A DNA stretch of 64,000 bases from Octopus vulgaris (lineage: Eukaryota). The stretch spans positions 13,826,001-13,890,000 of the forward strand of contig OX597837.1 in assembly GCA_951406725.2 (NCBI GenBank), in the 5' to 3' direction. A program made the translations under genes and the position numbers. Positions 2,045 through 62,872 of this stretch are shown in pieces. The stretch's first letter is position 1; every line of letters begins with the position of its first letter. The notes beneath the pieces were generated by a model. It did not search any database, was not told where the DNA came from, and worked only from the letters and a program-made list of their open reading frames with translations.

Positions 2045-2440
2045 TGTTATATACTCTATGGACAGGATGTAGGTCAAATCCAAAGCCAAGGACAGACACT
2101 TCCGTGACCAGCCGAGGTTCTTTGAAGTCAAGTGTTTTCCATTAATCATCCGGTGTGGAGATGCAAACACAAAGGGATTTCAGACCTGTTTGACAAGCAG
2201 CAAGCAAGTGGATTTAGTTTCAAACCTCAGGCAGGGCAAAGCGAGGTCCGTGACCGCTTGTGTACCATTGGCGATATTTTTCCTCCGTCTTCCCTTCCTT
2301 GGACCTTTCCTTTTCCTGTTTCTGACAAAGAGCTCCGCTCGAAACGTTAAGTCCTCCTTCTTTCTTTCCTTTCCTGAGCGTCTAATAACACTATACTTGT
2401 TCCACGTCCTCACGTTGTTTTCATGTTTGGATTAACTTTA
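2045..2440 (+). mobile_element. Short non-coding element with a Penelope-type minimal hammerhead motif (2318-2352)
   Basis: gttt-CTGACAA-a-GAGC tcc GCTC-GAAA-cg-TT-aagt. The element ends in (CA/TA)n; its 5' boundary is uncertain. Confidence 0.6.
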
Positions 2441-3089
2441 CATACACACACACATATATATATATGTGTGTGTGTGTCTTCTTGTCATGACATCACATTA
2501 TTGTTGTAAATGAGCATCACTGTTATACAAGCAGTATAATTTGTTTTCTAATGACACCCCTGAAATGCAACAAAATCTGTTTCAACATGCAAAAGGTTAC
2601 CACTTATTTTGTGTAAGAATTTGGTTCGTAAAATGTTTATTTTAGCGTAATTTATTTGCATCGGGTTATACTGAGCTGACAATTCCAAAAGGTCTTTATA
2701 ATTTTATAGGAAAAAAGAAAAAAAAAAGAAATATTAAATATTCCGCGCTTCTTCATTTTTGATGTAAAATTCAAATTTGAAATCTCAGTTTAACTTAATC
2801 TAGACGGGATTGTCCCCCCTTACGATATATTATCTTTTTCATTACGCCAAGGAATAAGGGAGGCTACTCATGATCTACTTAATTTTTTTTTTCTTCTTTA
2901 TAATCCGAGTAGTTTTCATCAAGGGGACTCAAACTTTAAGGTCTGCACTCTGAGTGGTATGCCACTAAAATTCCGTTTTGAATTGCAGTGATTTTGTGGC
3001 TGCCTTTCTAAAGCGACTAGAAGTGGATTCCCGTTTAGCAAGTAGGTACAAAATAAAACAGAATTGAAAAGGCAAACGTTTTTATTCAC

Positions 3090-3254
3090 CTGCCTAACAC
3101 CCGTGGACATGTTTAAAAAGTCAGAAAACAGCACAGCTCCTTCCATGACTTTCGGAAACATTTTTTCCTGCTAAGAGTTGCTGAAGCATGGAACAAACTG
3201 CCGGCATCAGTTGTTAGTTGTCGGAGCATCCTTCAAAACCTCCGTGCGTCCTGA
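3090..3254 (+). mobile_element. CR1-clade LINE ORF2 3' remnant
   Basis: Translates to TRGH...HDFRKHFFLLRVAEAWNKLPASVVSC, matching the CR1 C-terminal RGH...FF..RV...WN.LP..VV motif. Confidence 0.7.
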
Positions 3255-4112
3255 ATGTTTTCTGTACGTAGTTTTACGTATACGAGAGGTATAGTTAGTA
3301 GTAATCCACAGATAGCGATAGAATGATGTTGTAAGAATAAGAGCCAGAGAGAATTATAGGGTGTTGTCCACAGTAAACTTCATTTCTCCCTCTGGTCAAG
3401 ATTGTAGCTGGTCAGCCAGACTACGTTCTCCCCGAGTGGTGACTAACTCTGGTTGACTCTTCGTCACCGGCTGGTGAATAAAAACTGATTTTTGCTTGGG
3501 ATATGCTTGCTTATATAAAGATCCAGAAGGATAGATATATCATTGAGAAGAATAGATTTAGTTGGTGGTCTTGTTATCTATTCTAGCTTTTGGTGAAGTA
3601 GAAGAGGTTAGAAAGGGTCAAGTGGTGAAGATATTATTTTGGCCTAGCTAAAGGCATCTGGAAAATGTGAAAACTGCTGTCAGAGAAAACCCATTGTTTC
3701 ACTAGGGGGAAAAGTTCTGTAGCAGTGTTGATTTAAATTTGGCTATGTTGGATCTAATCCACTTCTTGCATGCAAGATTCGCTACATATATAAATATTTA
3801 TACAAGTTTTCCAAGAAAAGGGACAATTGATGTTGCATTGCTGATATGCCCAGCCCGTTACAGTACAGGGAGCAAAAATATGGAAATAAAAATGGATACT
3901 GAAAAGGTGATAATATACATAAAAATCATGGTTTTGTTCACCAGATCGGAGGTGCATTATATTCTTGATGAAAACACTTCATTTCTCGTTGCTTCAGTCC
4001 ACTCCGTTGCAAATGGGTCACCCAAAAACAGACTGGCGTTCCATTCAGTGGGGAATGTCAGCCTACCTGCCTAGGAATGCGAAGAAGTGTATTGTGATCA
4101 GTGGTGTATAAC

Positions 4113-60989: not shown

Positions 60990-61800
60990 GCCAAAGCACC
61001 ACCACCACCATCACCACCACCACCACCACCACCACCACCACCACCACCACCACCAGTATTGACATTGCTGCCCCCACATTGGCAGTTAACTCTATCAACC
61101 CCCCCAGCACCCCCATAATCCAATCACCACCACCACCACCACCATCACTACCACCACCATCATCACCACCACCACCACCAAACCCACCACCACCACCACC
61201 ACCACCACCACCACCATCACCACCATCATCACCACCACCTCCACCACCAAAGTAAATGCAACAGATGGAAGCAACAACAACAACAACAACCGCAACTGAA
61301 ATGAAAGAACAAACTGTAACAGTGACGTCATCACTAGTGCCACCCCACCCACGCCCCTCCCCCCTCCCACCCGTAATTGATGGAGCAAATGACAACAGCA
61401 GCAACAATTATGCTAATGACAAATGTAAAGAAAGGAGCAGCAATGGCAACAACAACAACAACAACAACAACTAAAGGAAGAGCAAACAAAAGGAAGAGCA
61501 ATAAACTGTCAAATGCTGCCACCACCACCACCACCACCACCACCAACATCACCACCACCACCACCACCATGAGGGGCCATCTTCAACAACAACAACAGCA
61601 GCAATGCCACCCCCACAGCAACATTTTGCTCTATAATCACCACCACCATCACCACCACCATCACAACTGTCACCATCATGGCCATCTTCAACAACAACAA
61701 AAACGCTGCCGCCCCCGCAACAGCATGTTGCTCTATCACCACTACCAAAAACCACTACCACCACCACCACTGTTACCACCTTGCTCCATCTTTGAGACAG
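60990..61800. repeat. Trinucleotide low-complexity region (CAC/CCA/CAA) with an internal ~100-bp duplication
   Basis: ggccatcttcaacaacaacaa...ttgctctat occurs at ~61575-61634 and ~61680-61736. Confidence 0.8.
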
Positions 61801-62565
61801 CCTCCTGACCCCATCCTTCGAGAACTGGGCATCTTTCTGGGTCATGAATTGGTCTGAGTGTTTCGTTTACATTCCTGTAACTTAGCAGTCCAACAAAAGT
61901 GATTGATAGAAGTTCTAAACGTAAAATAATTACTGGGATTGATTTGTGTGACTAAACCCTTGAAGGCAATGCTCCAGCATGGCCATAGTAAAATGACTGA
62001 AACAAGTAAAATTTAAAAGATGAAAAAATGAAATTTCCATCATATTATCCCAGCGAACATCAACAGAACATAAACGACCATGCCATCTTAATTGGGATTG
62101 CATAATCAGAACAACAAGGATATCAACAACAACAGCAACAACAACAGCAACAATAGCAACAGCAGCAGTAGCACCACAACCACCACCACCACCACCACCA
62201 CATTACAACTATTACATAATACTGAACTTCCAGAAACAGCTGTTGAGTTAAAAAGAACTATGCATTCTCCCCATAGTCATTTGCAAAAGTAAATTAATTT
62301 GTTAATATATGTAAATATCTATATGGTTGAACATATGGGATTATCTTCTGAATACATTTAGTTTTTGTATCTACACCTATCCCTATATATATATATATAT
62401 GAATAAATAAATGGAGTTTAACATGTGAGATTTTTGCTGCCCTGGTAACTATTTATTTATTTTTTCCGTGTTAATTGTTAACAAGGTAAAAATACACTCA
62501 TCTATATATATATATATATATATATATATATACACATATATGTGTGTGTGTGTATATATATATGT

Positions 62566-62872
62566 ATTAGAAGGTTTGGAGATGATGAACAGGTATTATA
62601 TATTAGAAGAAATGAGGTACTCAGAAATCTGGATGGTTTTATATTTACAGATATTTATTAGCATGTTACATGGTTTTATACATCATATATCATATATTAG
62701 CGCTTTTGTCCATTCCAGTGGAGTCTTTTAGTGGAGTCAGTTCAATTTGAAGACTCCACTAGAATGGACAAAAGTGCTAATATATGATATATAAAAACAT
62801 GTAACATACTAATAAATATCTGTAAATATAAAACCATCCAGATTTCTGAGTACCTCATTTCTTCTAATATAT
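62566..62872. mobile_element. Fold-back element with a degenerate hammerhead-like motif
   Basis: Arms ~62599-62727 and ~62750-62871 are near-perfect reverse complements. The right arm reads tTGAAGA-cTCCA ctagaa TGGAc-aAAA-gtgc-TA (gcgc in the left arm). Flanked by TA/GT microsatellites. Confidence 0.55.

Follow-up and report, generated by a model that had tools for sequence, protein, structure and literature searches.

The five hammerhead-like sites in the 64-kb stretch of Octopus vulgaris DNA analysed here (hereafter the window) are probably pLTR remnants, the decayed 3' ends of EN+ Penelope-like elements (PLEs) that carried hammerheads and belonged to about four lineages. The assignments of three of them (E1, E2 and E3) are firm; anatomy is the main basis for those of the other two (E4 and E5). 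PLE tail ends that carry a minimal hammerhead motif are already known from many animals. An earlier note on this DNA had placed five such motifs in the window and described a common order of their components; both the positions and the order were confirmed. The elements and their surroundings are as follows.

E1, 2316..2442, + strand: minimal hammerhead remnant (C3 at 2322, H17 at 2348), followed by about 95 nt up to the 3' end; G8-to-A change within a CpG, stems II and I of 4 bp each, ACGU palindrome.
(CA)/(TA)/(TG) run, 2443..2477: adjoins the 3' end of E1 and is its presumed target.
E2, 20240..20390, - strand: decayed, E1-related motif (C3 at 20359, H17 at 20332), then 93 nt of 3' sequence; core altered at A6, G12 and G16.2, stems II and I of 4 bp each.
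(TA)/(CA) run, 20199..20239: adjoins the 3' end of E2.
E3 left arm, 22085..22227, - strand: C3 at 22204, H17 at 22169; intact CUGAUGA box, stem II of 6 bp, stem I of 5 bp, 3' box with two CpG changes.
E3 right arm, 22236..22334, + strand: inverted copy; 3' box and palindrome intact, H17 at 22278, CUGANGA box lost through a 10-nt deletion.
SINE-like repeat, 5' half, 22005..22085, + strand: the copy into which E3 inserted.
SINE-like repeat, 3' half, 22341..22416, + strand: remainder of the same copy, split by E3.
E4, 38845..39000, - strand: weaker hammerhead-like motif (C3 at 38981, H17 at 38952), followed by 108 nt up to the 3' end; A substituted at position 4, stem II of 3 bp, stem I with three of four positions paired, palindrome of 9 nt.
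E5 left arm, 62601..62733, - strand: stem II, 6-nt palindrome, putative H17 at 62698; 5' core scrambled at the centre of the fold-back, A at position 12.
E5 left-arm extension, 62565..62600, - strand: 36 nt present on that arm only; candidate PLE tail.
E5 right arm, 62734..62875, + strand: putative 5' box with U at position 3 (62747), putative H17 at 62779; stem II present, position 12 occupied by A, a single CpG change in the palindrome; as in E5 generally, stem I is unformed.
(TA)/(TG) run, 62879-62909: terminates the E5 right arm.

The geometry of the insertions points to a PLE origin. The distance from the cleavage site to the 3' end is 95 nt in E1, 93 nt in E2, 108 nt in E4, 87/94 nt in E5 and 81-84 nt in the left arm of E3, the family of which ends near 22085-22088; the right arm of E3 is shorter (about 50-60 nt). 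Dinucleotide runs adjoin four of the five elements, as had been claimed, and E4 is flanked by (TA) runs on both sides (38831-38843 and 39001-39025). For 10.7% of all window positions, the first dinucleotide run downstream starts at a distance of 85-132 nt, which gives P(>=4 of 5) = 6e-4, a value whose significance is inflated because the earlier reader picked the sites partly by their microsatellite neighbours. E3 sits in a SINE-like repeat, not in a microsatellite, and no clean target-site duplication was found at its site. The two fold-backs recognized earlier are E3 and E5, with arms matching at 90 of 98 aligned columns in E3 and at 120 of 124 in E5, and in both the left arm carries a one-sided extension (about 25-33 nt in E3 and 36 nt in E5). 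The E5 extension, a candidate tail with putative family membership, closes with the 8-nt word that also closes the shared part of the arms, and a (TA) run follows. At the mirror positions 22140/22307 both arms of E3 depart from about 98% of the family depth, and this shared deviant base indicates a single template. The earlier reading of the elements as PLE-derived and microsatellite-associated thus gains support from two features it had not used, the cleavage-to-end distance and the one-arm tails.

We propose that a PLE protein encoded elsewhere would nick AT-rich DNA, chiefly (TA)/(CA) runs, as the literature on these elements suggests, and that reverse transcription would start, with uncut element RNA as template, about 60-130 nt past the hammerhead cleavage site, in line with published priming. 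Copying would then proceed back through the hammerhead and halt early, so that 130-160 nt remain. For the two fold-backs, E3 and E5, one template may have served for the extension of both target strands, producing head-to-head inverted arms with a tail on a single arm. The copies would afterwards have decayed mostly at CpG and become inert as ribozymes, while the family consensus, to judge from published hammerheads, might cleave.

This scheme has a close counterpart in Poseidon PAc of Anolis carolinensis (Frangieh et al. 2024, PMC11167929). In PAc the hammerhead cut lies at +26 and reverse transcription starts at +111-118, so that the end falls about 85-92 nt past the cut, as in the window; PAc also shares AT-rich targets, extension of both strands, a tail lying between two reverse transcription start sites and, as in our proposal, the use of uncut RNA as template. 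PAc is autonomous and its ORF begins at stem II, whereas no ORF was found in the window elements. For the EN+ PLEs Neptune and Naiad, Craig et al. 2021 (PMC8557442) describe 5' truncation, inverted 5'-truncated copies, a tail of 30-40 bp at one end and (TA)n targets, all of which recur here, and they record Octopus Naiads with a (TA)n preference. Because Naiads are presented there as having no canonical hammerheads, parents with a C-terminal EN (Neptune, Poseidon) would be more likely for the window elements.

The motifs themselves resemble the minimal hammerheads (min-HHRs) of metazoan PLEs in their succession of a CUGANGA-like box with an extra nucleotide, stem II, GAAA-palindrome-UH and a short stem I, and in their U-rich 5' flank. 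In both cases there are many sequence families per genome, most motifs are single and stem from truncated PLEs, and opposite-strand pairs lie 100-700 bp apart. Decay sets the window copies apart from these min-HHRs, as does the combination in E4 of a 3-bp stem II with a palindrome of 9 nt. The three molluscan rows for the metazoan min-HHRs (Fig. S3) comprise Lottia (2) and Crassostrea (1), and cephalopods are absent from that figure. We found no publication on PLE hammerheads in octopus in a search that left subscription journals and Repbase/Dfam entries mostly outside, and the word 'ribozyme' has no occurrence in the main text of the O. vulgaris repeat paper (PMC13282606).

The five elements had been described as unrelated. 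This is true for nine of the ten pairs, which are at chance level, but not for E1 and E2, whose alignment score of 49 was matched by none of 500 shuffles; there are therefore about four lineages, not five families in 64 kb. Apart from the arms of the fold-backs and the weak similarity of E1 to E2, self-BLAST and nhmmer revealed no extra copies of any element in the window. The region 2040-2300, which includes the start of the earlier candidate at 2045, likewise has no second copy within the window, and no link of that start to E1 could be established. For E2 the summed contig depth was 2.9-4.7 million and for E3 it was 1.5-5.5 million, compared with 44-55 in unique flank bins (runs X1 and X3), a ratio of 10^4-10^5 that is not a copy number. 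E2 and E3 are highly repetitive families, and for these two the earlier expectation of multi-copy elements was borne out. The base that restores G12 accounts for 83-96% of the depth of the E2 family in all four of four runs; restoration of A6 and G16.2 was not among the 40 majority differences listed of 94. The E2 family extends to at least 20390, where its depth is 5-10 times below that at 20339, and the E3 family runs upstream past the window copy, with a loose end in 236 contigs. Both observations are expected if the window copies are 5'-truncated derivatives of longer elements. Run X7, guessed to be RNA, also covers E2 and E3 and is uninformative on expression.

No match to RT or GIY-YIG Pfam models was obtained in 94 stop-to-stop frames of at least 48 aa near the elements or in 127 frames of at least 80 aa elsewhere in the window. 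The linked GIY-YIG+RT ORF that the earlier note had suggested looking for is thus missing from these 221 frames, which makes the link to an autonomous PLE indirect, and the copies are therefore not classed as autonomous PLEs. Such a lack of any coding remnant near the elements in the frames searched would also be in agreement with E1 and E2, above all, being true non-autonomous, SINE-like parasites of PLEs, with units of about 150-250 nt and a fixed 5' end that PLE proteins would copy from transcripts of their own. We regard this as less likely than not; it overlaps with an origin from truncated PLEs, the source RNA being the sole difference. E2 and E3 reach depths comparable in order of magnitude to those of the main SINE-like repeats of the window (2.8-8.6 million), and the fall in E2 depth is located about 50 nt upstream of 20339. 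PLE derivatives of this kind exist in Chlamydomonas according to PMC8557442, and the O. vulgaris annotation (PMC13282606) contains 893 recently active 'unclassified SINE' families. However, heavy 5' truncation predicts an identical depth profile, and most solo min-HHRs have been interpreted as truncated PLEs (PMC4209133). The upstream continuation of the E3 family and the persistence of the E2 family at 20390 also argue against a fixed 5' end, and with both families reaching further upstream, the earlier description as ORF-less non-autonomous families was not demonstrated.

How much of a hammerhead is left differs considerably between the elements. By the published min-HHR descriptor (PMC4209133, Fig. 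S7), applied exactly, none of the window copies is intact. With one core mismatch allowed, the window contains two matches, E1 and the left arm of E3 (Markov-4 null: mean 0.17, maximum 2 in 40 simulations; reversed window: 0). Two mismatches yielded five matches, namely E1, E3 left, E2 and two unrelated sites, against a null mean of 1.93 (15 simulations). E4 was matched only when a longer palindrome and one mismatch in stem I were permitted, a setting with three matches in the window and a null mean of 0.7 (maximum 3; 40 simulations), and E5 was not matched at any setting. The minimal hammerhead fold that had been ascribed to every element is thus clearly above chance for E1 and E3 only; E2 and E4 were matched solely at looser settings, at which chance yields about equal numbers, and the 5' core of E5 is too scrambled for hammerhead status by itself. 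A CpG-aware descriptor of our own gave scores of 8 for E3, 6 for E1 and 3 for E2 and missed E4 and E5 (null means 0.3 for scores of at least 3 and 0.03 for at least 6; 30 simulations), but it was tuned after the elements had been seen, and we therefore rely on the published one.

The CUGANGA box is intact in the left arm of E3 only and has one change each in E1, E2, E4 and E5, and the GAAA-palindrome-UH box is intact in E1, E3 right and E4. Stems II and I of E1, E2 and E3 lie within the 3-7 bp of the metazoan motif. CpG-type changes, many of which had been noticed earlier, account for seven of ten core or palindrome substitutions by our reading of the alignment. No hammerhead was among 109 Rfam matches at E<=10 in the window, and folding z-scores of the five motifs ranged from -0.76 to +1.00, none of them significant. 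Stems I and II occur together in the predicted lowest-energy fold only of E3 and, roughly, of E2, and an alternative pairing is predicted for E1. Metazoan min-HHRs are characterized by weak self-cleavage of dimers and none of monomers. Dimer co-folding, carried out with no control, lowered the energy by 4-10 kcal/mol, mostly in structures other than the active dimer fold. Judged from sequence, the best reading is that all window copies would be inert as ribozymes.

With E5 failing at all descriptor settings and E4 recovered where the null itself reaches three, E4, E5 and perhaps the 5' box of E2 might be chance look-alikes in unrelated repeats, picked by eye; moreover, pattern and protein searches recovered no outside copy of E4 or E5. 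We nevertheless consider chance resemblance unlikely. In both elements a (TA) run follows at the same spacing of 87-108 nt, E4 has such a run on either side, and E5 combines inverted arms with its one-sided tail of 36 nt. In addition, published min-HHRs include variants of this kind: the extra nucleotide is missing next to a 6-nt palindrome in shrimp, palindromes are longer in Hydra, and U occurs at position 3.

Outside the window, the PLE reading draws support from a metagenome scan whose pattern took only two parts from E1/E2, stem II and the 3' box; it returned 24 loci, which, having been selected by this pattern, belong mostly to one family. The four core positions left unspecified in the scan spell CYGA at 8 of the 13 low-GC loci versus 0 of 11 high-GC loci, and 3 of the 24 match the published descriptor exactly. 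Viral contigs contained no match to the E1 pattern or to two E5 patterns, and prokaryote genomes none to the E3 pattern. The E4 pattern had 22 matches in viral contigs, none of them (0/22) with the upstream core, and these were taken as chance. At the protein level, 22 residues of a predicted O. bimaculoides protein are identical to the E3 frame, a match counted in favour of the PLE reading; for this frame one match among four candidates, a dystrobrevin isoform, and no PLE protein was found; searches with the 120-aa frame over E1 and with the E4 frame gave no protein match.

Non-LTR retrozymes are likewise non-coding, hammerhead-bearing and related to PLE pLTRs (PMC7229834; bioRxiv 10.64898/2026.07.22.740005), and since their families include dispersed monomers (the same preprint), the elements could in principle be monomeric leftovers of tandem retrozymes spread via circular RNA. 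This is highly improbable: according to PMC7229834, animal retrozymes are tandem repeats of 150-450 bp that have canonical type I hammerheads and form circular RNAs, whereas the motifs here are of the minimal type, the elements are solo or inverted, not head-to-tail, and the copies still span the cleavage site, uncut and followed by about 90 nt. In the window, no hammerhead motif is covered by any of the 67 tandem-repeat rows, and the lack of tandem arrays on any element argues against the earlier label 'retrozyme-like'.

As truncated PLE 3' ends, the five elements extend a known animal pattern to octopus and may aid repeat annotation, as PLE ends become recognizable among short microsatellite-flanked repeats by a hammerhead remnant, a spacing of about 90 nt and a one-sided tail. 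The E3 and E5 fold-backs would document in nature the mechanism of two-strand extension and internal initiation that has been demonstrated in vitro for the anole PLE. The finding would be of greater importance if some of the families were self-standing non-autonomous units at SINE-like abundance. Tentatively, and with considerable doubt, we suggest that several very abundant SINE-like families of Octopus consist only of a PLE hammerhead and about 90 nt, copied uncut into (TA)n. If so, part of the octopus 'unclassified SINE' fraction would be PLE parasites, the hammerhead fold would persist in divergent families because it signals to the PLE protein and not because it cuts, and tens of thousands of natural copies would be available for testing the role of PLE hammerheads.

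The five elements are most likely decayed insertions made by the RT-endonuclease of Penelope-like elements (PLEs) and subsequently worn by CpG decay. Decayed minimal hammerhead ribozyme (min-HHR) motifs and ends with PLE-type geometry are present in the following features:
2322, + strand: E1
20359, - strand: E2
22085-22334: E3, a fold-back with a left and a right arm
38981, - strand: E4
62601-62875: E5, a fold-back with a left and a right arm

We infer that the PLE enzyme would have nicked (TA)-rich DNA, that reverse transcription would have started internally on uncut RNA and stopped after 130-160 nt, that the fold-backs would result from extension of both strands, and that CpG decay would have followed insertion.

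An earlier note had described one order of hammerhead parts at five sites; this order is readable at all five, but an intact motif is found at none. When the published min-HHR descriptor (PMC4209133, Fig. S7) was coded and both strands of the window were scanned, there was no exact match. Allowing one core mismatch gave two matches, E1 at 2322 (+) and the left arm of E3 at 22204 (-); the mean for 40 Markov-4 sequences was 0.17 (maximum 2), and the reversed window had none. Two mismatches gave five matches, including E2 at 20359 (-), compared with a mean of 1.93 over 15 simulations. An Rfam search of the window did not find the hammerhead, and folding z-scores of the five motifs ranged from -0.76 to +1.00. 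The arms of E3 are complementary in what they retain, the left arm keeping the 5' box (CUGANGA) and the right arm the 3' box (GAAA) and the palindrome. As noted earlier, many deviations are CpG transitions (by reading, 7 of the 10 substitutions in the core or palindrome), and the copies in the window should not self-cleave. The elements had also been regarded as mutually unrelated, which holds for nine pairs but not for E1 and E2 (alignment score 49, attained by none of 500 shuffles).

The first dinucleotide run lies 95 nt from the putative cleavage nucleotide (H17) in E1, 93 nt in E2, 108 nt in E4 and 87 or 94 nt in the arms of E5; in E3, the alignment of contigs from other loci reaches 22085-22088, 81-84 nt beyond the cleavage site. 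Of all oriented positions in the window, 10.7% have their first run starting 85-132 nt downstream. The resulting probability for four of five is P = 6e-4, but the way in which the sites were selected overstates its significance. For the anole PLE PAc, PMC11167929 places the hammerhead cut at +26 and the start of reverse transcription at +111-118, with uncut RNA as template, AT-rich DNA as target and extension of both strands. The two long fold-backs proposed earlier are indeed head-to-head inverted pairs with their 3' ends outward, the arms sharing 90 of 98 (E3) and 120 of 124 (E5) columns. The left arm of E5 exceeds the right by 36 nt, and the two end points share a closing 8-nt word, followed by a (TA) run; the left arm of E3 is longer by about 25-33 nt. 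For PLEs, PMC8557442 describes 5'-truncated copies in inverted orientation, a (TA)n bias and a tail of 30-40 bp on one end. Mirror positions 22140 and 22307 of E3 both depart from about 98% of family depth, and this shared departure points to one template for both arms; a later local duplication is a possible source of the mirrored bases.

Neither an RT nor a GIY-YIG domain was found by Pfam in the 94 frames close to the elements or in the 127 longer ones elsewhere in the window. Frames of the elements also served as queries in three protein searches, none of which returned a PLE protein. Source RNAs that were short non-autonomous units instead of full PLEs are conceivable, if the less probable origin. 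E4 was found only when the descriptor was relaxed to accept a mismatch in stem I together with a longer palindrome (3 matches vs a null mean of 0.7). No descriptor setting tried on the window matched E5, in which stem I is unformed and the 5' box falls within the scrambled fold-back centre. We nevertheless think it unlikely that E4 and E5, with their run distances of 87-108 nt, are look-alikes. Retrozymes are very improbable, as no tandem array over any hammerhead motif was found in the window.

The window has a GC content of 40% and is depleted in CpG (observed/expected 0.52), and microsatellites and SINE-like repeats abound across it. Other features are:
10834-11274, - strand: CD164-like sialomucin frame (Pfam MGC-24), uninterrupted, 147 aa
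39162-41782, - strand: broken frames beside E4 without Pfam match, by eye presumably an L1/Tx1-type LINE
42233-42436: fold-back with arms of about 60 nt around a (TA)/(TG)/(CA) centre, weakly like 44847-44877 (E = 3), no hammerhead match
44660-44898: long fold-back, arms 84% alike, no hammerhead descriptor match
48871-49565, - strand: broken mariner-type transposase (Pfam Transposase_1, E 4e-5, and weak HTH matches)
53136-53474, 55333-55708, 56688-57132: head-to-tail dimers of a 184-bp SINE-like repeat

The CD164-like frame shares 99% identity with a protein of Octopus vulgaris (82% for O. sinensis, 64% for O. bimaculoides), which identifies the window as Octopus DNA. The SINE-like repeat has many single copies elsewhere and no min-HHR descriptor match. 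The inner part of the fold-back at 44660-44898 resembles Rfam mir-548 (65 bits, gathering threshold 90); since mir-548 derives from a mariner MITE, this fold-back may be MITE-like.

Outside the window, 24 loci were recovered by a metagenome scan whose pattern, taken from E1/E2, was limited to the last part of the 5' box, stem II and the 3' box. Of the 13 loci with GC <=0.42, eight have CYGA at the four core positions left free; of the 11 with GC >0.42, none does. Stem I reached at least 3 bp in six of the 13 low-GC loci, with sequences unlike those of E1 and E2. These loci are mostly one family with some duplicates (the 13 have 11 different stem I contexts) and therefore attest a shared motif type, not independent covariation. 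Three loci match the published descriptor exactly, and the low-GC contigs are probably animal host DNA:
L004, L011, L013, L014, L016, L017, L019, L023, L024, metagenome: low-GC contigs with min-HHR, stem II as in E1/E2

Contigs of four public runs were aligned at 80% likeness to 20150-22400, a span covering two of the five elements. Both the E2 and the E3 family clearly occur in great abundance. Summed depth, which is not a copy number, was 2.9-4.7 million for E2 and 1.5-5.5 million for E3 in runs X1 and X3; unique flank bins had 44-55, and the bins of the main SINE-like repeats 2.8-8.6 million. Among the majority differences listed for this span (40 of 94), the base at 20339 that restores core position G12 of E2 accounts for 86, 90, 96 and 83% of the depth, one value per run. 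Depth of the E2 family is 5-10 times lower at 20390 than at 20339. The E3 family extends upstream of the window copy, as shown by the 236 contigs of X3 that form a loose end behind 22227. Contigs spanning 22048-22054 to 22346-22365 without the intervening 290-310 nt or so, together with the sequence alignment, show that E3 was inserted into a SINE-like copy, without a clean target-site duplication. The first 22 residues of a predicted dystrobrevin beta isoform of O. bimaculoides (P0051) match an E3-family frame exactly; the family is thus also present in that species, and the start of this protein is an exonised or mis-annotated PLE end.

A literature search found no paper on octopus PLE hammerheads; the supplements of PMC13282606 may name these families. 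Fig. S3 of PMC4209133 includes molluscs but no cephalopods. Animal genomes contain thousands of min-HHRs each, in many families, mostly as single motifs of truncated PLEs and at times as opposite-strand pairs (PMC4209133). The octopus elements are further cases of this arrangement already known from animal genomes.
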